Assembly (NCBI GenBank): GCA_045641465.1
Contig: JAZUGW010000166.1
Coordinates: 691 to 64,690, forward strand
Origin: Kiritimatiellia bacterium
GTDB lineage: Bacteria; Verrucomicrobiota; Kiritimatiellia; RFP12; UBA1067
Direction: 5' to 3'
DNA: 64,000 nucleotides
The position numbers were made by a program, and so were the translations under genes. This document shows, piece by piece, positions 2,827 through 12,797 of this stretch (within the stretch, counting starts at the first letter, position 1; each line of letters starts with the position of its first letter). The notes under the pieces are model-generated. The model was not told where the DNA came from, did not search any database, and was given only the letters and a program-made list of their open reading frames with translations.

Positions 2827-5800
2827 TTACCGAATGAGCACGATGAGGCCCTTGTCGACGTAGAGTCCGTCGCCCTTGCGGGCGAACGAAAACTCTCCGT
2901 TCACCTCGTGGAAACGAACCGTGGGACGCGTTGTCCACGACATCACCTTGTCGTTGGGATGGATGCCCTTGAGGCGTTCGCCGAAGAAGATGCCGAAATC
3001 GGCGTTCTCCGGACCCGTCCAGTTGCGGTTGTCGTAGGAGAAGTCGCCTCCCGTCTTCTTCGAGAGGTCGATCACCGTGCGGGACGCAAAGGACCCCACG
3101 CCCTGCTCCGAGAGCGTGCCGTCTTCAAGAACGAGTTGACCCTGGAAACCGCTCGCACGTGCGAGGAGCGTAGCCGTGCCGCCCGCCAGGCGAATCTCAC
3201 CGGTTCCGAGCACCGTGCAGGCATCAAGGAAGCGGGCCGTACCGCTCGAGAGGAGGAACGTGCCGTTGTTCAGCAGCGTCCCCGCCAAGCCGAGGTTGGT
3301 GCTCGTACCGTTCAACACGTTGACCGTCGCGCCGGCGGCGATTTCCACATCCGTGAACGTGCCCGTGCGATCCTGCACCTTGAGCGTGTTGCCGGCCGAA
3401 ACCGTCACCTTGCCGTTGAACTTGTACTCGTTCTGCGTGCTTCCGATCACGCCACCGCCCTCGCCCACTTCGACGGGCATGTTGACTTCGTAGGGCGTCG
3501 CTTTGTTCGTCCAGGTGATAAGCTTTCCGCCGTTCGTCAGGACGATCTTCTCGGAAATGGAGAAATCGCCGGTGGAGTCGCCGCACGGCTGGAAGAAACC
3601 GCCGTCCGTCACCACGACACGCTTGACGTAGATCGACGAATTACCGCCACAGAACGCGACCACCGAGGTGTTCTTGATCGTGAGCGTATAGTCCTCGCCA
3701 TGGAGACTGCACGAGCCACCCACAGAACTGGCGCGGAAATCGAGGCGTCCCTTGCCGCCGAAGGTGGCATCACCTGTGAGGAAAGCCGTCTTCATATTGA
3801 TGGCCGTATTCTGCGAGTTGAGCAGCGCACCGCTCCCGTCGGGACCTTCGCCTTCGATGTAGAACGTGCGATTGACGAGAGAGCCTACACCCTTGTTCGA
3901 GGTATCGAGCTGACCCTTGTTCGCGATCGTGATCGTGCCGCTCGAGCCGAACACGTTCTGCGACGCCATCGCGAGGCGGAAGACGCCGTTTGAAATGAAC
4001 ATCGGAACCGATGCGGCAATCGTGCCCGACACCCAGTTGAGCGTACCGGGCGTATCCTTGATGAACCGCGCATTCCCCGTCACGTTGAACTGCGCATTGT
4101 CGACGGAGGCCGTTTCTCCCGCATCGACGTCGAGGAACAAGGCGCCGCCCGGCGTGAGCGAATCCGTCACCGTGAGCGCGGGCGTGGTCGCCGTCGGCGG
4201 CAGGAGGCGCAGATTGTGGCCGAGGAGGTCGATGGTCACGCCTGCCGACAACGCTTCGACCGGCACCCCCGTCCAATCGCAGTCGGACGTAAGGGCGATC
4301 GGCGAACCGATGGAGAGACTCTTGCAAACGAGGCTTTCGCCCCGCGCCAAGCTGAAGCTGCCGGCCGTTGTACCCGGCACGGTCACAACCGTGTCAGCCG
4401 TGGGAAGTTGATCGGGCATCACGTCGTTGACGGCATTCCGGCACTCCCAGTTCGCCAGATCAGTACGGTCTCCCGTGCGTCCGAGGCCCGTCCAGGTGGC
4501 CGTAACCACAAGCGAAAGGTCGGCATAGCGCGCCTTCAAGGCACCGTTCTCGACAAAGAGCACAAGCGTACCCGCCGGGAGTCCCGTATAGGTGAACTTC
4601 GCCTCATCGCCGGCCGCAAGGCCTTGGGCAATCAACGTGGGCACCGTCGCAAAGCTTGAGTCTTCATCAAGTACGAAGTCAAGTACGATTGGCGCCTCCG
4701 CCGTCACCCCTGTGAGATCGAGCGTGGCGGGAACGATGGAATCCGCCGCCGTCGCCGTGACATCGAGCCCGAGGTGCGTACCGCCAGCGAGTGTGAGCGC
4801 ATCGAACGCATACGTCTTCGCCGCGCCGTCCGCAAAGGAAAGGCCGCCCGCCGAAACCGTCACCGGCATCGTGAACGCCGTGACCGAGGCCACGCGCATC
4901 GTGCCATCCGTCACCTTCGAAATGAGCGTGCAGTCGTTCGGGATGAGCGTCGCCGCCACTTCGCCATTCCGCACCACGAGCGTCGTTCCCTCCAGACTCC
5001 AATCGATGTCGCCGAAGGTTCGGTAGTAGTCGGCGGCAGGGCCCGTAGAAGAGAGGAGGCGCGTCGACCAGAACCGCACATCGTCGCAGACGTTGTCGGC
5101 GTTCGGCGTGGTCACCACCCATGACGACGTGTTGACAACGCCGCATCCGTGCGGATAAGCCGGGAGATTGTTCTGCTTGTTGTAACCACCAAGCACCTGG
5201 AAGCACTTGTTCGCAAACGTGTACTGAATCGACCCCGCAGCCGGCACGCCGTCCACTTCCACCGTCACCGCACCGTTCGCGGCATGGCGGAACACGTAGG
5301 AATGGTACTGCGTGACGTCCGCCACGGGAACCGAGAGCGTCCGCTGGATCGCCGAGTTTTTCTCGACGGCGAGGCAGATGCTGTTCGCGCTTTCGGAAAG
5401 AACGAGCAACGTCTCGGCATTGCCCTGGCGCATCGATCCCAGGCAGAGGAGGACATGATTGGCCGCCGCAACCGTCTTGAACCGGGTGGCGAAGGTGAAT
5501 TCCGATCCCAGATTGACACTGGTATACCACGGCGAAGTTCCCCAGATGCCCTTCCCGAGTTTCGTATCGACGAAATTCGCAATCGCGTTCTTCCCGTTCG
5601 GGGAGTAGTTGCCGCCCCAAACGACCCGCGTATCCGAACCCTCGTTGTTTCGCCATGCCGGATTGGTGGGCGTATCGAAGGTCAGTTTGATTTCGGGCTC
5701 GAGGACAAGATCGGCAACGAGCGCCCCGTTGCGCACGCTAAACGTCGCGTCTACGCCACTCGCAGCGGCGAACTTCTCCTCATCGCCCGCGACCAGGCCA

Positions 5801-6975
5801 TTCGAGATCAAAACCAGGCCCTGCGCCGCTTCCGTCCCCCCTATGAGACGGAAATTGATGCGCACAGGGTTCGCCGCGCTCGCCCCCGAAAGGTCGAGCG
5901 AACCGGGCGCAAACGCATCGCACCTGTCTGCGGCAACATCCACATCAAGCGTCGTCCCGCCCGCGAGCGTCAAAGCGCCCGTGACCTCATACGCTTCGGC
6001 CAGTCCATTCTGGAACGACACTTCGCCGGCCTGAACCGAAAGGGCCGGGAAGGTCTTCACCGCATCAAACCGCGCGAGCCCCGTCGTCACCTTCTCCACG
6101 CATGTGCAACCCTGGAAATCGGGATAGCTCGAATGGAGCTCGCCCTTCCCGATCGTGAGCGTGGTTCCGTCAAGCGTTTCGTCCGAATCGCCGAAGAGCG
6201 CGGCATATTCAAGTCCTTCCGCCTCGGTGAGCAGCGTCCCCGTCCAAATGCGCACGTCGTCCACGACATTGTCGGGGTTGGGGGTCGTCACAACCCAGGT
6301 GTCTTTGTTCACCGTCCCGCAGCCATGCGGGTAAGCCGCAAGTTCATTCTGCTTGTTGTAGCCGCCGAGAATCTGCAACAGATTGGAACTGTGGGAATAG
6401 GCGATCGATCCGTTCGCGGCCACACCGTCGACTTCGGCGGTAACCGTACCGTTGTTGTAACGGAAGACGTAGGCGTGATAACGCGTCACATCCGTCACGG
6501 GAATTTCAAACGTCCGCTGGATCGCCGTCTTTTTTTCGACGGCGAGGCAGATGCTGTTCGCACTTTTGGAAACAACGAGCAACGTCTCGTTATTGCCGCG
6601 CATTCCCCCGAGGCAGAACAGGATGTGATTGGGGGCCGTCACCGTCTTGAAGCTGAGGCCCAGCGTGAATGTCGTTCCCGGGGAAACGATGTTGCCCCAC
6701 GGCGAACAGTCGCGAAGGCCATACCCCAGCCGAGTCGCATCGAAATTGCCAATGGCATTCTTGCCGTTCACCGAATAGTTGCCACCACTATTGTAGGCCT
6801 TACCGCTACCGTGGCCGCCCGTACCGGTGCTGCGATACCACTGCGTAGACGACGTGTCGTCAAACGTGATCTTGATGGCAGGATCCGGCAACGCCTGAAC
6901 GACAAATGCAACCGCGCTCGTCAAAACGACGACACAGAAATGCCGAAACACTTCTCCCATATTCGAACAAACCAT
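2827..6975 (-). CDS. giant secreted surface protein: two tandem LamG/concanavalin-like domains followed by a PATR/beta-helix repeat region
   Basis: 1384-aa ORF. The ATG at 6975 is preceded by GGAGG with 6-nt spacing, and the track's TTG at 6981 is probably an over-extension. Signal peptide MGEVFRHFCVVVLTSAVAFVV. Two ~200-aa internal repeats carry LamG-like motifs (NGKNAI.NF...LL.LSESANSICLAVEK...GGYNKQN..AYPHGCG...DDVR.W). The C-terminal half has GTxTLAGG-type beta-strand repeats shared with gene 1. Confidence 0.8.
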   Translation of the reverse strand: MVCSNMGEVFRHFCVVVLTSAVAFVVQALPDPAIKITFDDTSSTQWYRSTGTGGHGSGKAYNSGGNYSVNGKNAIGNFDATRLGYGLRDCSPWGNIVSPGTTFTLGLSFKTVTAPNHILFCLGGMRGNNETLLVVSKSANSICLAVEKKTAIQRTFEIPVTDVTRYHAYVFRYNNGTVTAEVDGVAANGSIAYSHSSNLLQILGGYNKQNELAAYPHGCGTVNKDTWVVTTPNPDNVVDDVRIWTGTLLTEAEGLEYAALFGDSDETLDGTTLTIGKGELHSSYPDFQGCTCVEKVTTGLARFDAVKTFPALSVQAGEVSFQNGLAEAYEVTGALTLAGGTTLDVDVAADRCDAFAPGSLDLSGASAANPVRINFRLIGGTEAAQGLVLISNGLVAGDEEKFAAASGVDATFSVRNGALVADLVLEPEIKLTFDTPTNPAWRNNEGSDTRVVWGGNYSPNGKNAIANFVDTKLGKGIWGTSPWYTSVNLGSEFTFATRFKTVAAANHVLLCLGSMRQGNAETLLVLSESANSICLAVEKNSAIQRTLSVPVADVTQYHSYVFRHAANGAVTVEVDGVPAAGSIQYTFANKCFQVLGGYNKQNNLPAYPHGCGVVNTSSWVVTTPNADNVCDDVRFWSTRLLSSTGPAADYYRTFGDIDWSLEGTTLVVRNGEVAATLIPNDCTLISKVTDGTMRVASVTAFTMPVTVSAGGLSFADGAAKTYAFDALTLAGGTHLGLDVTATAADSIVPATLDLTGVTAEAPIVLDFVLDEDSSFATVPTLIAQGLAAGDEAKFTYTGLPAGTLVLFVENGALKARYADLSLVVTATWTGLGRTGDRTDLANWECRNAVNDVMPDQLPTADTVVTVPGTTAGSFSLARGESLVCKSLSIGSPIALTSDCDWTGVPVEALSAGVTIDLLGHNLRLLPPTATTPALTVTDSLTPGGALFLDVDAGETASVDNAQFNVTGNARFIKDTPGTLNWVSGTIAASVPMFISNGVFRLAMASQNVFGSSGTITIANKGQLDTSNKGVGSLVNRTFYIEGEGPDGSGALLNSQNTAINMKTAFLTGDATFGGKGRLDFRASSVGGSCSLHGEDYTLTIKNTSVVAFCGGNSSIYVKRVVVTDGGFFQPCGDSTGDFSISEKIVLTNGGKLITWTNKATPYEVNMPVEVGEGGGVIGSTQNEYKFNGKVTVSAGNTLKVQDRTGTFTDVEIAAGATVNVLNGTSTNLGLAGTLLNNGTFLLSSGTARFLDACTVLGTGEIRLAGGTATLLARASGFQGQLVLEDGTLSEQGVGSFASRTVIDLSKKTGGDFSYDNRNWTGPENADFGIFFGERLKGIHPNDKVMSWTTRPTVRFHEVNGEFSFARKGDGLYVDKGLIVLIR

Positions 6976-7260
6976 TCTCAACCTCCAAGTTAATCAACTT
7001 CTACGAGTTAAACAGGATGATTTTATCAAATATCCCATCGAACTTCAATCCTAAAAGTCAAAGGCCGAGATTCCCTCGTTTACATCAGGCTACTATTTTG
7101 TTACACTGTCTCTCGCTATCAACCAGGAGATATCCGAGGATGTTAGCACAAGACCGCCGGACGCTTGGATGCGTAAGATCGACTCTGTCTCTTCCCCAAG
7201 ATTAAGTCCGGCGATCTTGTTTTAATTCACACAGGATTCCCAGTGTCCATTAGTCGTGAA

Positions 7261-7410: not shown

Positions 7411-10400
7411 TTACGGTTCGTAGGGTGTACGGAAACGCTCTCGACGTAGAATGGCACGATTCCAGCGCGCGCGGTCGTTCGCATCCCAATCGACAAGCTC
7501 GTCATAGGCGCCGCAGAACGGCACACCCAAGTCGACCCAAAGCGCGAGCGTGCGACACTCGGCATCTGTCAAACCCGCTGCATGGCCCTTGTCGAGCATC
7601 TCCGAAAAGAGCTTGCTTGTCCGCGAACCACGCGAACACGGCGGTATCAGCTTCGGCGTCGACGAGGATGCCACCCAATTGAGCACTGGATGATCGGGAT
7701 TTCCAATCCAGATCCGGTCCGCCCAGTAGTTGCGCTTCTTTCCAAGCCAAGTCGAATGCGTCAGGTTCACGTACGCACGCGACCAATAGCGCTTGCCCGT
7801 AATGTCTTTCACGAGTTCGCCGGAGAGGTCCATCAGCTTGGGATTGTCGTCGCGATTATGGCAGCTCACGCACCGCCGCGCGAGAATCGGCTGGACATCT
7901 TCTCGGAAGCTGAACGCACGTGGCGCCGGTGCAAGTGCGACTGTCGGACGGGGCAATGACGCGCCATGATAGTCGGGCGATTCGTTCGTGCGTTCATGAC
8001 AACCCACACAGCTCGCGACCTCATCCGGCTGAAGCGTCGTCCAACTGCGCATCGTCTGAACCAGGCGCCCCTTCTCGTCGAGCAACTGAAAATAGAGCGG
8101 CGTTCGAGCCGGGACCGTGAACGCCACGGATCCATCCGCCGCCACGGGTACTTCGCCGAGTACGCGCTTGACCATCCACGTACCGTTGCCAATTGCCGGC
8201 GGCGAACTCGATGCGCCCATCTGGAGCGGTCCCTGGTTCAAGTTCCAGCCCGTGCCAATCGGACGATAATCGAGCGACACCACCCGCAGCGACTTGACGC
8301 ACCCCGCCGGTGCACCTTTCATCGCTTCCCCGGCGTACACGTCGCGAATCGTTACCGTCCCCGTCGTATGGTCCTCATGGGGACGCTTGGACGTACGCGC
8401 CACAAGCTTCCTCGCCCGTACAGGAACAGGCCGTCCACAAGACACTTTCCCCTTCTGCGCGACGAGCAGTTCACGCGCCCCATGGACATCCATCCAGTAA
8501 AGTCCCATCGCATGGTCACGCTCGCGTCCCGCCTTCCGCCCGCGCGGGTTCTGCGCGAGCACTACACTCTCTTCGTTCACCGGGTAGGGATAGGCCGAGA
8601 GCGCCCCCTGCTGACCGAAGTCCGAGTCTTTACGTACGAACGTCGACTTCCGCAAGGGCGCCACCTGCCAGCACCCTTCCGTCTCTTCACGCCCCGCGCG
8701 AGGATCGAAACGCATCAGTTCCCCCGGCTGCCAGGCATGATGCCCCGTACCGATCGCAAAGAAATAAGGGCTATTCGGCACAGCACGTGCATGGATGATC
8801 GTATTCGGGAAGAACGAATTCGCCCCGTAGATCGCGCGTTGCGTCGTTCCATCGGGGTTCATCGCCATCAACGGCTGCGTGTAGATCTGTCCTCGGTCGT
8901 TGTATTCCCAACGCGTATAGAAGACACGTCCATCCCATGTCAGCGTCGGATAATAGTCATGCACCTGGTCGAAGGTGATGCGTGTGATATTCGAACCGTC
9001 GGCCTCGCACCGATAGAGATTGTCGACTTCGCTGAACCAGCAGTCGATGACCTGCGAACAACGCGTCGACGCAAAAAGGATGCACCCGTCAGCCAAATAG
9101 CACCCTTCAATGTCGGACGCCCCCTTTCCAAACGTCAACTGACGAACCTGTCGCGTCGCCAGCGTCATTTCATAGAGATGGTAATCGTCATGATCACGAT
9201 CCGCTCGATAGGAATAGAGAATGCGTGTTCCATCCGGCGACACATCGACATCCCGAAAACAACCAGCACGCGTCTTCAGCAGCGTTGTCTCCTGCCAGAG
9301 TCCGTCGGGCGAATACTCGGCGAGACACAAGGACGAACCAACGGCACGATAGTCATGATCGTCGCTCAGCGGCGAAGTACCGTCTGAAAGATCGACCAGT
9401 TTCTGAAACACCGTCTTCCCCGGGACATAATGACGGCAGTACACCCATTTCGTTGCAAATGCCCGGACAGGCTCCAAACGCGCCGCCCGTCGCGCAAGAC
9501 ACTGTTCACGCCATGCCGCCTCCGTGAGATAGGTCGGCTGTGAACCACCCGCCTGCAGTCGCCAGTCGGCGAGCAATTCGGCCATCGCAGACGATGTTTT
9601 CGGCGCGGGCTTGTAGTTCTCCGCATGCAGAAAAGCGGCCGGATCACTCATCGTCTCATAGTCGGCCTTCACACGGTCTGCAGACTGCGCCCCATCCGCC
9701 ACGCGCACTTCGTCGTAAAGTCCGCACCAGCTCTGCGTCGTAAGCGTCGGGGCATTGCCGATGCCGAGTCCACCACCGCCATTACTGATTCCCTCGCAGG
9801 AATCCGTCAGCTCCGCTTCCGCCCCATTCACATAAAGCCTTACATTCGGCGTGCCATCGAAGACCGCTGTCACATACGTCCATTCGGCAAACGAAGGCGA
9901 AACGAAATGCTTCCATTTGGCATGATCACCGCCGACGCCCCCAAAATCCCAGCGATTGTCATGCAAATAGAATTCAATGCCGCAGGTCGTGTTGTTATCC
10001 CGACGCGAACTAAAGAACACCTGATACCGGCCACGAGCCACCCGCGTACTCTTGAACCACCCCGAGAAAGAGACCTCGCCATACGTTGTGAGATTTTTCC
10101 AGTAGCCATTCGGCGCGACAAGCGCATTCCCGCAGCGTTCAAGCGAGGTCTGGTTCACCCGTGCACCACCGACGACACCATCCGCAGTCGCCGTCATCTG
10201 TCGCAGCATTTCCGCACTCCCCTGACGACCAAAACGCGGTACCGCATCGTTTCCGAAACCGGACCTGTCGGGTTCGACCTCGGCGCCGCTCGCACGCCCC
10301 ATATGCCACACACCCGTAAAACCATCCCAGACACGATCCGAGGCATCTGCCGTTTTCCGCGCCTGCGCATCGCCCCAATGAAGCGTAAGCGACGTCTGCG

Positions 10401-10698
10401 CACTCTTCAAACGCGGCACCTTGACCCAGACGAGGGACTGTCCGGACGAATTCCACGTGTCGATTTCGTGGGGGACGACACGCCCCGTCTCGTCTTCAAA
10501 CCAGATGTCCCTGCCATCGGCCGAGGCACGGAAATCGGGCACGGCCTCGGGCAATTTCACCAACGCCTGGAAATTCGTCAGCGTGGTCGTGCCCGTATAC
10601 CCTTGAAAGTGAAGCCGCGCCTGCTCGCCTGCTGCGGATGCACACATCACCAGCGAGCCAAGTGCCAATCCAGCGATTCGATTCCTCATTGCGAACAT
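7411..10698 (-). CDS. secreted multidomain protein: DUF2341-like and LamG N-terminal domains, a TolB-type beta-propeller, and a C-terminal PSCyt1-type cytochrome c region with two CxxCH motifs
   Basis: 1095 aa with signal peptide MRNRIAGLALGSLVMCASAAGE. DUF2341-like DGRDIWFEDETG...VWVKVP. LamG ending in DEVRV. PD40-like repeats (SPDGTRILYSYRADRD, NPDGTTQRAIY). C-terminal CVGCHE and QPILARRCVSCHN, the latter being the Planctomycete cytochrome c signature. Confidence 0.8.
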   Translation of the reverse strand: MFAMRNRIAGLALGSLVMCASAAGEQARLHFQGYTGTTTLTNFQALVKLPEAVPDFRASADGRDIWFEDETGRVVPHEIDTWNSSGQSLVWVKVPRLKSAQTSLTLHWGDAQARKTADASDRVWDGFTGVWHMGRASGAEVEPDRSGFGNDAVPRFGRQGSAEMLRQMTATADGVVGGARVNQTSLERCGNALVAPNGYWKNLTTYGEVSFSGWFKSTRVARGRYQVFFSSRRDNNTTCGIEFYLHDNRWDFGGVGGDHAKWKHFVSPSFAEWTYVTAVFDGTPNVRLYVNGAEAELTDSCEGISNGGGGLGIGNAPTLTTQSWCGLYDEVRVADGAQSADRVKADYETMSDPAAFLHAENYKPAPKTSSAMAELLADWRLQAGGSQPTYLTEAAWREQCLARRAARLEPVRAFATKWVYCRHYVPGKTVFQKLVDLSDGTSPLSDDHDYRAVGSSLCLAEYSPDGLWQETTLLKTRAGCFRDVDVSPDGTRILYSYRADRDHDDYHLYEMTLATRQVRQLTFGKGASDIEGCYLADGCILFASTRCSQVIDCWFSEVDNLYRCEADGSNITRITFDQVHDYYPTLTWDGRVFYTRWEYNDRGQIYTQPLMAMNPDGTTQRAIYGANSFFPNTIIHARAVPNSPYFFAIGTGHHAWQPGELMRFDPRAGREETEGCWQVAPLRKSTFVRKDSDFGQQGALSAYPYPVNEESVVLAQNPRGRKAGRERDHAMGLYWMDVHGARELLVAQKGKVSCGRPVPVRARKLVARTSKRPHEDHTTGTVTIRDVYAGEAMKGAPAGCVKSLRVVSLDYRPIGTGWNLNQGPLQMGASSSPPAIGNGTWMVKRVLGEVPVAADGSVAFTVPARTPLYFQLLDEKGRLVQTMRSWTTLQPDEVASCVGCHERTNESPDYHGASLPRPTVALAPAPRAFSFREDVQPILARRCVSCHNRDDNPKLMDLSGELVKDITGKRYWSRAYVNLTHSTWLGKKRNYWADRIWIGNPDHPVLNWVASSSTPKLIPPCSRGSRTSKLFSEMLDKGHAAGLTDAECRTLALWVDLGVPFCGAYDELVDWDANDRARWNRAILRRERFRTPYEP

Positions 10699-10714: not shown

Positions 10715-12199
10715 TTAACGAATCGTGCGCTCGGGAAGCGCCGAGGGTGCGTTGGTGGGAGCCGTTTCACGCGCTCCGAACATGATGTCAACCTCCTTGC
10801 GACGCAACTCCGCAAGACGGTCCGACTCGCGTTCGCGCGCGCGTTCCAACTCCGTCTGCTTGGCCTGGGCCAAGGCCACCGCCTGTTCGAGTTCTTCACA
10901 GTCTTTCGTGGCCGCCGTAAACTGCGCCCGCCAGGTGTTCAACTGCTTCTCCTTCGCAGCAATCGTCACCCGTATCTGCGCGAGCGCACCGTCGAGTGCC
11001 GTCTTGAACCGCGCCTGGGCGGCCGCATTCAACTTTATCTCCGCCGCAAGCTGCGGATGGTTTTCAGTGTATTTCGTCCTCAAATCATTCAGCAGCGCCG
11101 TCTCCTCGACGAGCGCCCTAAAAGAAGCGGCGACTTCCGACCCTTGCGGAATCACCGACGGACATCCTCCGGCCGCGAGACCACTCGTCTGCAGATAGAC
11201 AAGCGCCCGCTCAAGCGTCTGACAGGCTTCGAGATCGCGTTCACAAGCGCGCAGTCCCTCTTGGACCTTTCCACGCGTCTGTTCGAGTCCATCGCGTCGT
11301 ACCGCAACAACCGCAGGGCCGCCTGTCGTCAGAAAATCCTGCAGCGTCTTGAGCGCCTGCTCCGAGACGCTCTTCTGGTGTTCGATCTCCGCACGGACAG
11401 CGACAAGATTCGATTCGCGTATTCGCGCTTCAGTCGCGGCCTTTTCGGCCTGTTCCTGCAGTGCTTTGGCGCGTTTCTGCGCCCGTTCCTGTTCACGCGC
11501 ACCGCTATTCACCTGTTCGTAGGCCCGCTCAAGCCACCCGGTCTTCCAGCCCCAGTAGATGCCACCGCCCAACACGACAAGCAGCAGGAACAGCTTGCCT
11601 TTGGAAATCGGCTTCGAGGTTTTTTGGGGGGACTGTCCCCCCGAATGGTGGCTGTGATGATGATGGTGACGTCCGGACCCATCCGACGAACTCATCGCGA
11701 AAACAGATGGATCCGCCAACGCGGCGGCGAAAGATGAACAGGACGGGAAACGCGCCTGCGGCTCCTTCGCCAATGCGCGCACGAGCACCTCGCGGCGAGG
11801 ACAATCCATCGGCAGATCCGGCGGACGGTTCATCAGCACGGTTTTAATGACCGTCTCGTCATTCGTCTCAAACACAGAGGCGAAAGGAGCCTTCCCCAAA
11901 ACCAGTTCAACAAACAACGCCGCGAGCGCATACTGGTCGGTCCAGGAATTCTTCCGTCCTCCCCACCAGCGTTCCGGCGCACGATAGCGCCACTGCGACA
12001 GCAACTCCGGCATCTCGCCGCCCGCCGACTCGTCGGTGACACGAACACGCACGACCGGACGCCCCGCACCGTCCAGTTCGATCCGCACGCTCGTGGGTGT
12101 AATGTCAAAATCCTCCCCTTTCCCCAAATGCGCCTGATGGAGCCGCTGAACGAGCTGGGCCACGATGTCCAGCGCCTGGTTGAATGAGTAGGTTTTCAC
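10715..12199 (-). CDS. membrane protein: N-terminal Hanks-type kinase C-lobe remnant (pseudokinase), His-rich linker, one TM helix, C-terminal Wzz/GumC-like chain-length-determinant coiled coil
   Basis: GTG start whose GTGA overlaps the stop of the upstream gene. Kinase C-lobe motifs YRAPE...SWTDQYALAALFVELVLGKAPF are present, but there is no N-lobe, the HRD equivalent is degenerate (EDFDITPTSV) and DFG is replaced by TDE. HHHHHSHHSGG linker and TM LFLLLVVLGGGIYWGW. The coiled coil carries the PCP-family motif LRTKYTENHPQLAAEIKLNAAAQ. Confidence 0.65.
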   Translation of the reverse strand: MKTYSFNQALDIVAQLVQRLHQAHLGKGEDFDITPTSVRIELDGAGRPVVRVRVTDESAGGEMPELLSQWRYRAPERWWGGRKNSWTDQYALAALFVELVLGKAPFASVFETNDETVIKTVLMNRPPDLPMDCPRREVLVRALAKEPQARFPSCSSFAAALADPSVFAMSSSDGSGRHHHHHSHHSGGQSPQKTSKPISKGKLFLLLVVLGGGIYWGWKTGWLERAYEQVNSGAREQERAQKRAKALQEQAEKAATEARIRESNLVAVRAEIEHQKSVSEQALKTLQDFLTTGGPAVVAVRRDGLEQTRGKVQEGLRACERDLEACQTLERALVYLQTSGLAAGGCPSVIPQGSEVAASFRALVEETALLNDLRTKYTENHPQLAAEIKLNAAAQARFKTALDGALAQIRVTIAAKEKQLNTWRAQFTAATKDCEELEQAVALAQAKQTELERARERESDRLAELRRKEVDIMFGARETAPTNAPSALPERTIR

Positions 12200-12507
12200 T
12201 TCGCTGACTTCTTCCGTTGTGTACGTTTCGTTTTCTTGACCTTCTTCGGCGATTCGAGAGGTCCTAGTTTCGTAAGCATTTTCACGAGGCCGTCGGCGAT
12301 GAGCGTTTTCACACGCTCCTTCATTTCGTCGGCGGCATCCGCGAGGCCATCAAGCTTACGGTTCAAACGACGAATCCCTGCATCGATGTCAAGCAACACC
12401 GAACCCACGGCCTGGTCCACCGCCTTAAGCGGCTTCGCCCTGAGTTTACGAGGCGCCGGCTTTTTCTTTTTCTTCGGCGCTTTTTGGGGAGGTTCTTTCG
12501 GCTTCAC
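12196..12507 (-). CDS. small lysine-rich basic protein (histone H1-like tails flanking a helical core)
   Basis: 103 aa, GTG start with GAGG Shine-Dalgarno. N-terminus KPKEPPQKAPKKKKKPAPRK and C-terminus KKVKKTKRTQRKKSAK. Tightly packed between the His-rich lipoprotein gene (14-nt gap) and the pseudokinase gene (4-nt overlap), which suggests translational coupling. Confidence 0.55.
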   Translation of the reverse strand: MKPKEPPQKAPKKKKKPAPRKLRAKPLKAVDQAVGSVLLDIDAGIRRLNRKLDGLADAADEMKERVKTLIADGLVKMLTKLGPLESPKKVKKTKRTQRKKSAK

Positions 12508-12520
12508 CGCCGGGCCTCAT

Positions 12521-12754
12521 TTAGCGAGACCGAGCCGGCGGCGGAGGCGGCGGCACCGGGCGAACGGCCGGCGGATGCACCGGCTTCGCATGATGCGCGG
12601 GCGCAGGATGCACAACCGGCGCATACCCGCCATGCGGTCCCTGCTGATAGTAGCCAGGACCACCCGAATGATGATGGTGGTGATGACCGTGATGGCAACC
12701 GGCGAAAGCAAACGCCACGCCGAAAACGAACGCGAGGATAAGTGTGTTTTTCAT
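12521..12754 (-). CDS. small His-rich lipoprotein (putative periplasmic metal-binding)
   Basis: The ATG at 12754 (the track ORF is over-extended to 12835) gives MKNTLILAFVFGVAFAFAGC (lipobox) followed by HHGHHHHHHSGGPGYYQQGPHGG...HPAPAHHAKPVHPP and a polyproline tail. Confidence 0.6.
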   Translation of the reverse strand: MKNTLILAFVFGVAFAFAGCHHGHHHHHHSGGPGYYQQGPHGGYAPVVHPAPAHHAKPVHPPAVRPVPPPPPPARSR

Positions 12755-12797
12755 GAGTCCATTATAGCGAATTCGCGCCCAAAAGGCAAGGTCCAGA

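Follow-up and report, generated by a model that had tools for sequence, protein, structure and literature searches.

How does a protein that carries only one half of a kinase become fixed in a bacterial lineage, and what could that half do at the membrane? The question is raised by a gene at 10715..12199 of a 64-kb stretch of Kiritimatiellia DNA (contig JAZUGW010000166.1), which is referred to as the window. The gene lies on the minus strand, as do all features of the window given below with coordinates, starts with GTG and encodes a single-pass membrane protein of 494 residues. From the N-terminus, the protein consists of a kinase C-lobe, a His-rich and basic linker, a transmembrane (TM) helix and a helical ectodomain resembling part of the polysaccharide co-polymerases (PCPs). 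An original prediction, made from the DNA letters, had described it as a pseudokinase C-lobe fused to a PCP-type coiled coil.

The exact protein is found on several independent public contigs, and the sole annotation that NCBI nr gives for one cluster mate, MCQ2393722.1, is 'hypothetical protein [Kiritimatiellae bacterium]'. Nineteen homologous protein clusters (481–518 residues, 33–96% identity) align with it end to end. In a scan of one genome per species, the same architecture occurs at seven loci, mostly in metagenome-assembled genomes (MAGs) of Kiritimatiellae or Kiritimatiellia from rumen and gut. These half-kinase proteins with a PCP-like stalk, which cross the inner membrane once, form a small family, mainly from Kiritimatiellia MAGs. 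Because this range of identity is accompanied by a ratio of nonsynonymous to synonymous substitution (Ka/Ks) of about 0.07, the gene is real and conserved, far beyond chance.

The two halves of the protein

Residues 1–165 (11705..12199) are the C-lobe of a Hanks-type Ser/Thr kinase, from αE to αI, cut off exactly at the hinge. The family profile, Foldseek and identity to kinases all place it there. Searched against PDB sequences, the family profile aligns with residues 111–283 of Mycobacterium tuberculosis PknA (E 5e-19) and residues 111–280 of PknB (E 3e-13), followed in rank by PknE, PknI and StkP. The AlphaFold2 model of the full protein (mean predicted local distance difference test score, pLDDT, 80.9) superimposes in Foldseek on the PknB and PknA kinase domains over about 167 columns, with a root-mean-square deviation of 3.2–4 Å. 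The pLDDT is 75–91 across most of residues 1–170 and falls to 60–69 in the activation-segment region (residues 51–70). With the window sequence alone, Pfam reports Pkinase at residues 63–116 (E 0.0045), where the score of 16.9 bits stays below the PF00069 gathering threshold of 31.7, and NCBIfam reports StpK7 (1.3e-12), MAD6 (6.6e-8) and PknB (9.3e-5). Every one of these single-sequence matches falls on the second half of the kinase model. The profile and Foldseek comparisons with kinases both support a kinase fold for the N-terminal part, so the prediction of a Hanks C-lobe with a YRAPE motif and an αF–αG region stands.

The core of the C-lobe is complete, with its APE motif, αF Asp, αH–αI Arg and helices αE to αI. 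The APE motif, YRAPE (residues 72–76, 11972..11986), does not vary within the family, and neither does the αF segment that comes next, DQYALAALFVELV. Invariant columns include R71, Y72, A74, P75, E76, the αF stretch D88–V100 and R150 between αH and αI, and the αF segment written from D88 as D88-QYALAALFVELV is unchanged across the family.

The catalytic elements, on the other hand, are eroded, much as had been predicted. At the position of the canonical HRDxKPxN loop, the alignments with the family and with PDB kinases place a degenerate DFDITPTS (residues 30–37, 12089..12112). D30-F31-D32 occupies the HRD position, and D32 retains the equivalent of the catalytic Asp, which is nearly invariant in the family alignment. 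The catalytic-loop Lys and Asn are substituted in the whole family. At the DFG position lies T55-D56-E57 (12029..12037), so the Mg-binding motif is lost. DFG is replaced in most family members, and some retain HRD or DLG (P0007 has both).

The N-lobe is missing altogether. The Gly-rich loop, the β3 VAIK Lys and the αC Glu of the bilobal Hanks fold are absent, and so is the hinge. In all 19 homologues and at the seven genome loci, the protein starts at the αD/αE boundary, just past the hinge, and only 16–37 residues precede the kinase match at the family loci, compared with 140–225 in the nearest complete kinases. Searching the window by tblastn with N-lobes revealed neither an N-lobe coding sequence nor a remnant of one. 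At other loci the family gene begins 13–22 bp past unrelated genes (citrate synthase, GDPD). Because the boundary is fixed, N-lobe sequence is absent and unrelated genes are packed tightly upstream, the loss of the N-lobe is ancestral and clean rather than the product of a frameshift or an assembly artefact; the predicted absence of the N-lobe thus proves to be a property of the whole family.

All ATP-binding elements and most catalytic elements are therefore lost in the window protein. With the N-lobe missing and the catalytic Lys, Asn and DFG gone, it should be unable to act as a kinase, and we infer from its sequence that it is non-catalytic. Its nearest complete relatives are kinases of Kiritimatiellae, Lentisphaerae and Verrucomicrobia MAGs (loci L012–L036), which carry the motifs '...MEYAPGVTLSQWRKQFPDRKVPIAQAL...HRDVKPAN...LDFGLA...YMAPEQW...TDQYALAALFHELIVGEVPFASVFETGD'. 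The closest of these paralogues have in common the signature 'QW...TDQYALA..F.ELV.G..PFA.VFET.D'. The window C-lobe is 36–42% identical to the C-lobes of the complete Kiritimatiellae and Lentisphaerae kinases; on account of this identity and the shared motifs, we regard the complete kinases as the parent subfamily.

Between the two halves lies a low-complexity cytoplasmic linker (residues 166–199, 11603..11704; pLDDT <50), which contains the His run HHHHHSHH and, next to the membrane, a basic stretch; it is His-rich in most family members. The TM helix KGKLFLLLVVLGGGIYWGW (residues ~200–218, 11546..11602), recognised by hydropathy and charge, contains the family-invariant W216. Both the His-rich linker and the single TM helix had been predicted. 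A TM scan of the full protein found no second TM helix, so the protein lacks the TM pair of PCPs. Averaged over the family, the stretch of 15 residues ahead of the TM helix contains 4.7 Lys or Arg and the stretch after it 2.65, with fewer acidic residues before the helix, and the kinase-derived domain has no signal peptide. These basic residues and the absence of a signal peptide indicate an N-in/C-out topology. The original prediction had also called the topology inverted relative to the bacterial tyrosine kinases (BY-kinases). In the order of domains this is correct, as the kinase-derived domain precedes the TM helix and the BY-kinase follows TM2. The orientation in the membrane is not inverted, because both ends of a PCP are cytoplasmic.

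The periplasmic ectodomain (residues 219–476, 10772..11545) is predicted to be all-helical with a pLDDT of 86, mostly above 90, and contains four helices (222–292, 295–343, 355–376, 382–474). A disordered tail follows the invariant F474-G475 (residues 477–494 and the stop codon, 10715..10771; pLDDT <50), and the protein ends about 20 residues past that pair. Residues 262–459 (10823..11416) form a core that can be aligned, with no gaps, to the helices in the middle of the periplasmic part of PCP-2a proteins. In hhalign, the ectodomain profile matches a set of 24 PCP-2a proteins with 99.3% probability (E 1.2e-20) over 198 gapless columns, pairing ectodomain columns 44–241 with PCP columns 217–414 of 798. 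Four elements fall in register, namely 'FL..GG', 'IP.ESEV' against 'LP...PR..EI', 'kfTErHPxV' against 'RYTxxHPxV', and 'LERARERE' against 'LERER'. The same core is found by tblastn with P0128, a Kiritimatiellia PCP-2a protein with GNVR and P-loop domains, whose residues 124–337 match 11431–10793 (E 8e-14). This is its sole match in the window, and the PCP queries found no PCP gene there other than the target.

The third of these elements belongs to LRTKYTENHPQLAAEIKL (residues 373–390, 11030..11083), the 'YTxxHPxV' helix-turn-helix motif common to PCP-2 proteins, of which H381-P382 does not vary within the family. We searched 1.84 billion representative proteins exhaustively by HMMER with a profile of the ectodomain only and obtained 108 matches at E<=1e-3. 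In the 104 other matches to this profile, the motif His and Pro are each at least 90% conserved; among the 53 matches of at least 560 residues, the His is invariant and the Pro at least 90% conserved. Beyond the family, the matches are mostly proteins of ~720–830 residues in which the matched part lies between TM1 (~50–110) and TM2 (~430–490). The 53 long matches contain CbiA (43 of 53), AAA_31 (40), GNVR (36) and Wzz (31) domains and are for this reason PCP-2a/BY-kinase proteins; they also fit the NCBIfam models TIGR01005, TIGR03007 and TIGR03017 and the Wzc models. TIGR03007, the chain-length determinant of the XrtA system, matches nine of 15 family ectodomains (best E 2.6e-9), and TIGR03017 (EpsF) matches four of the 15. 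The window sequence by itself falls short of TIGR03007.

These profile comparisons show that the ectodomain and the central helices of the PCP-2 polysaccharide co-polymerases are homologous and that it is not a generic coiled coil. It is nevertheless an incomplete PCP. The helical region is present, and the TM pair, Wzz and GNVR are not: TM1 with the membrane-proximal base/Wzz region (columns ~90–216), the Pro-rich/GNVR segment and TM2 are all missing. The protein has no Walker A motif, and neither AAA_31 nor CbiA is matched in Pfam or NCBIfam, so it has no P-loop BY-kinase. The predicted Wzz/PCP-type coiled coil is thus right for the central helices only; the base, the Pro-rich and GNVR parts and TM2 did not turn up.

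Both halves are conserved. Within the family, mean pairwise identity reaches 55% in the C-lobe, 42% in the ectodomain and 28% in the linker, and about 40 C-lobe residues are invariant in the family alignment. Between the window gene and its relative at locus L038 (79% identical), Ka/Ks is 0.066 in the C-lobe and 0.063 in the ectodomain, at a Ks near saturation. The C-lobe and the ectodomain are both under purifying selection where they are present.

Relatives and gene neighbourhood

Related proteins connect the family to complete kinases on one side and to kinase-free forms on the other. In P0029 (623 residues), the same truncated ectodomain (E 5e-49) follows a kinase domain of full length (Pfam Pkinase 27–295). 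Its Gly-loop is degenerate, its β3 Lys is replaced by Arg and its HRD by HCA, and DFG is retained; judged by these motifs, P0029 is a bilobal pseudokinase. P0026–P0028 (~300 residues) have only a His/Arg-rich tail, the TM helix and the ectodomain, with no kinase remnant. P0026 starts 14 bp past citrate synthase, the syntenic position of the C-lobe-bearing P0008. It is found at L042 (2559–3494) and L043 (6001–6936), in each case directly past citrate synthase as is the C-lobe-bearing gene at L001–L003; at L042 a type III CRISPR-Cas (Cmr) cluster comes after it. From P0029, the C-lobe-only family, P0026–P0028 and the synteny, we derive a reduction series that runs from a full pseudokinase through the C-lobe alone to no kinase. 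We infer that a receptor-type kinase or pseudokinase that had captured a PCP-derived ectodomain was reduced step by step to give the family.

A second group of relatives, P0032, P0044, P0167 and P0181 (~720–750 residues), places a Hanks kinase N-terminal to a complete two-TM PCP and belongs to the same class, Kiritimatiellia. The kinase motifs of the P0032 type are intact (GxGxxG, AIK, HRDVKPGN, DFG), and these four kinases are, to judge from their sequences, apparently active. Local PCP-2a/BY-kinase proteins reach 82% identity to the P0032 PCP part. As such proteins exist besides the target family, Hanks-kinase–PCP fusions are a recurrent theme in Kiritimatiellia; our literature search found no description of them. 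The domain combination that had struck the original prediction as unfamiliar is accordingly not unique to this gene, even if no description of it was found.

The PCP-like helices also occur in other settings. Among the matches of the exhaustive ectodomain profile search, small secreted proteins (P0034, P0049, P0056, P0066, P0090, P0093 and others) consist of two or three tandem repeats of ~45–57 residues, each with 'LLT(K/R)YTEQHPxV', so that the PCP 'HP' helix-turn-helix appears as a stand-alone repeat unit. In P0036 and two other profile matches, a BlaR1-type M56 peptidase/sensor domain is fused to a PCP-like helical segment, another case of a signalling domain wired to PCP-like periplasmic helices; in P0036 the segment is followed by two SLBB domains of the Wza/OPX type.

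In the window, the gene directly upstream is a Lys-rich open reading frame (ORF) of 103 residues (12196..12507), whose stop overlaps the GTG start of the target by 4 nt (GTGA). From this overlap, the two genes are read as translationally coupled. In the ORF, KKKKKP/KKTKRTQRKK tails flank a helical core, an arrangement that resembles histone H1, and it belongs to no Pfam or NCBIfam family. Its counterpart at L038 (7223–7609) is 72% identical and shows the same 4-nt overlap. We considered it as a family partner or a substitute for the N-lobe and rejected it, since among the family loci outside the window only L038, a close relative, retains it. The original prediction was right that a K-rich gene adjoins the target, but this arrangement is not a feature of the family.

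Further upstream, at 12521–12754, lies a small secreted or lipoprotein-like ORF whose signal peptide is directly followed by a run of His (MKNTLILAFVFGVAFAFAGCHHGHHHHHH...). Comparable ORFs occur at L001 (8134–8532), L004 (2190–2645), L005 (3764–4240) and L038 (6985–7209), and in several loci such His-run ORFs recur 0.3–7 kb upstream of the family gene. Their occurrence together with the His-rich cytoplasmic linker of the target could be a coincidence or a metal-related link. The best promoter-like site of the region, TTGCCT-17-TATAAT (10/12; 12761–12789), ends 6 nt before the ATG of this ORF. Its position suggests a leaderless transcript of a possible unit comprising the His-run ORF, the Lys-rich ORF, the target and perhaps the LamG gene downstream.

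That downstream neighbour, 16 bp away (7411–10698), encodes a secreted protein of 1095 residues with DUF2341, a LamG-like part, the middle domain of hydrazine synthase alpha (HZS_alpha, E 1e-32) and, close to its C-terminal end, a CxxCH-type haem motif. At L038 a GFO_IDH_MocA gene stands in its place, and the upstream genes are syntenic with the window. Another ORF (2827–6981) encodes 1384 residues with an internal duplication, two copies of ~420 residues resembling LamG/concanavalin-type segments, and has no Pfam match at E<=1e-5. Genes near the target also encode an MFS transporter, ALAD, a GH2 hydrolase and TyrRS. Elsewhere, the family neighbours are unrelated housekeeping genes (citrate synthase and an aldose epimerase at L001–L003, GDPD and LepA at L004), and no conserved operon partner was found across the family loci examined.

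Possible role and competing explanations

On the basis of these structures and relatives, the reading we favour, at roughly even confidence, is that the protein is a non-catalytic scaffold joining a PCP-like periplasmic assembly to cytoplasmic partners. The ectodomain would most likely self-assemble as PCP helical regions do, or intercalate with the genuine PCP-2 proteins of the organism, and such an assembly is predicted to be a periplasm-spanning helical stalk or ring. True PCPs form oligomeric rings, as a rule octamers, which control the length or the export of the polymer. On the cytoplasmic face, the C-lobe would most likely serve as a docking or oligomerisation module through its conserved αF–αG–αH substrate-binding side. 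Its partners would probably be full-length paralogous Ser/Thr kinases, or the partners of those kinases. By analogy, this role may parallel that of the BY pseudokinase EcpK acting on the PCP EpsV, as a phosphorylation-independent scaffold coupled to a PCP-like assembly.

We also consider, more tentatively, a broader reading. It takes the protein as a selected half-kinase within a Kiritimatiellia system in which Hanks kinases or pseudokinases placed before TM1 replace the BY-kinases placed after TM2 in controlling PCP assemblies. In such a system, full-length paralogous kinases would find in the C-lobe a platform for docking or a decoy, and the machinery of the envelope or of polysaccharides would be linked to Ser/Thr signalling with no catalytic step.

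Several observations weigh against the scaffold reading. No conserved gene neighbourhood ties the family to polysaccharide export or to any pathway. The polysaccharide export genes that had been suggested as neighbours did not materialise: wzx, wzy, wza and glycosyltransferase genes are absent within ~20 kb in the window, and polysaccharide genes are absent from the seven other distinct family loci examined (L001–L005 and L038 included; loci only). P0026–P0028 show that the C-lobe is dispensable in some lineages, and the structural models cover the monomer, partner binding and oligomerisation being proposals. The active Hanks–PCP fusions sit in kinase islands (L040, L041, L045) and not in polysaccharide loci, and therefore the PCP-like module may be a sensor or stalk unrelated to polysaccharide. 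One of these islands, L045, contains FHA, Band_7/DZR, Snf7-like and AAA genes and four more Pkinase genes, three with FGE-sulfatase domains. Finally, the window protein and the 15 family ectodomains give no match at E<=1 to Pfam Wzz (PF02706) or GNVR (PF13807), and Foldseek of the ectodomain against the PDB returns generic coiled coils, with Smc best (E 5e-3), chemoreceptors among the matches and the Wza–Wzc structure 9r64_I in 31st place (E 0.09).

We ranked the competing explanations by falling credibility as a relic, a genuine chain-length determinant, a split kinase, and then a chance coiled coil or a pseudogene, the last two being effectively excluded. That only the ectodomain is functional, and the C-lobe a remnant being lost, at most a folded cytoplasmic plug, is a minority possibility that draws on the reduction series from P0029 through the C-lobe-only family to P0026–P0028, with P0026 in syntenic position past citrate synthase. 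Drift in a decaying remnant should outpace that in a functional domain, but the C-lobe is the best-conserved part of the protein, as its higher mean identity, its ~40 invariant residues and its Ka/Ks of 0.066 attest. The homology of the ectodomain to PCP-2a proteins and to the chain-length determinants of TIGR03007 and TIGR03017 could instead point to a genuine co-polymerase of a Wzx/Wzy pathway, with the C-lobe in place of the BY-kinase. We consider this unlikely, since TM2, the Pro-rich/GNVR segment and the membrane-proximal base/Wzz region are all missing, and neither the window nor the seven other loci place wzx, wzy, wza or glycosyltransferase genes beside the gene. An active enzyme whose N-lobe is supplied in trans by another polypeptide would account for the nearly invariant D32 equivalent and for members such as P0007 that keep HRD and DLG. 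It is very improbable, as the catalytic-loop Lys and Asn are replaced family-wide, DFG is replaced in most members including that of the window, the window holds no N-lobe-like sequence, and the upstream neighbours vary among loci.

The two remaining explanations concern the reality of the halves themselves. If the ectodomain were a generic coiled coil of similar composition and its HP motif a coincidence, the Foldseek matches to Smc and chemoreceptor coiled coils would be expected, and so would the sequence searches that return only coiled-coil noise: ATG16, Rad50 and SMC for the single sequence in Pfam and NCBIfam, with haemagglutinin also among the noise of the Pfam and PDB sequence searches, and nothing meaningful for the ectodomain profile against PDB sequences, where Wzc was not retrieved at E<=10. 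However, the exhaustive profile search returns PCP-2a proteins specifically and not Smc- or myosin-type coiled coils, the 198-column gapless alignment keeps loops and motifs in register, and the curated TIGR03007 model matches independently, which leaves this explanation hardly credible. Comparison with Wzz/GumC-type proteins, proposed as a check at the outset, thus gave a profile–profile match to PCP-2a, and in Foldseek against the PDB generic coiled coils. Least credible of all is that the gene is a pseudogene or arose as an artefact of assembly, as what is left of an ordinary kinase gene after truncation. It has the truncation itself in its favour and nothing further; against it stand the identical boundary in 19 protein clusters and seven genome loci, the identical protein on several independent contigs, the intact frame, the tight packing against neighbours and the Ka/Ks of ~0.07.

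Comparison with known systems

Pseudokinases are usually described as bilobal folds with dead active sites. If the C-lobe-only protein is indeed conserved by selection, it would show that a kinase's substrate-binding half can work by itself as a module for interactions. For PCP-2 proteins, the accepted view is one of control by P-loop BY-kinases or BY-pseudokinases. The target family and the active Hanks-kinase–PCP fusions suggest that Ser/Thr signalling, too, can be connected to periplasmic assemblies of the PCP type. Kiritimatiellia are specialised degraders of sulfated polysaccharides and copious producers of exopolymer, and for this reason the control of their envelope is of ecological interest.

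Among known systems, the PCP-2a/BY-kinase proteins (Wzc and GumC/ExoP-like; TIGR01005, TIGR03007, TIGR03017) share with the target homologous central helices with 'IP..SEV', 'YTxxHPxV' and 'LER.RE', and a cytoplasmic kinase-derived domain attached to periplasmic helices. The target differs in having one TM helix instead of two and no Wzz-type base, Pro-rich/GNVR segment or P-loop BY-kinase. Its cytoplasmic domain is an N-terminal remnant of the Hanks fold, and no polysaccharide gene cluster surrounds it. Receptor kinases of the PknB/PknA type, including the 'TDQYALA' paralogues of L012–L036, have the same plan of a cytoplasmic N-terminal kinase fold, a single TM helix and an extracytoplasmic C-terminal domain, whereas the target lacks the N-lobe (Gly-loop, β3 Lys, αC and hinge), the catalytic Lys and Asn, and DFG.

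A functional likeness is found in Myxococcus xanthus, where EcpK is a BY pseudokinase that acts as a scaffold on the PCP-2 protein EpsV, in a proposed phosphorylation-independent manner (PMC12004946). Both cases pair a dead cytoplasmic module that derives from a kinase with a PCP-type protein of the periplasm. In contrast, EcpK is a separate protein with the P-loop BY-kinase fold, and EpsV is a complete two-TM PCP encoded in an exopolysaccharide (EPS) gene cluster; the dead module of the target is half of a Hanks fold and forms one polypeptide with the ectodomain.

The bacterial Ser/Thr pseudokinases (ActPs1-3/MviN, CP1, DYD, DLHK; YukC/EssB) resemble the target in being Hanks-derived, catalytically impaired and often membrane-associated. 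The headings of a 2025 review name ActPs1-3/GLW, CP1, DYD and DLHK only, and in a term search of the review 'N-lobe' occurs once, on the MviN back-to-back dimer, and 'C-lobe' and 'truncated' do not occur (PMC12599244). As far as the headings and the term search go, the review does not appear to cover a C-lobe-only family or a PCP/Wzz fusion. Our literature search found no description of a C-lobe-only bacterial kinase or of a Pkinase–Wzz/GNVR fusion. Both building blocks are well known, and it is the conserved N-lobe-less Hanks C-lobe fused to a truncated PCP ectodomain that appears to be undescribed.

The target also has counterparts in its own class. The P0032-type fusions and P0029 likewise place a Hanks kinase N-terminal to a PCP-type ectodomain, which in P0029 is truncated in the same way. 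The P0032 type differs from the target in its intact catalytic motifs and complete two-TM PCP, and P0029 in the N-lobe that it still possesses. Side by side with the target, these relatives offer a natural series for kinase decay, from active kinase to full pseudokinase, half-kinase and no kinase.

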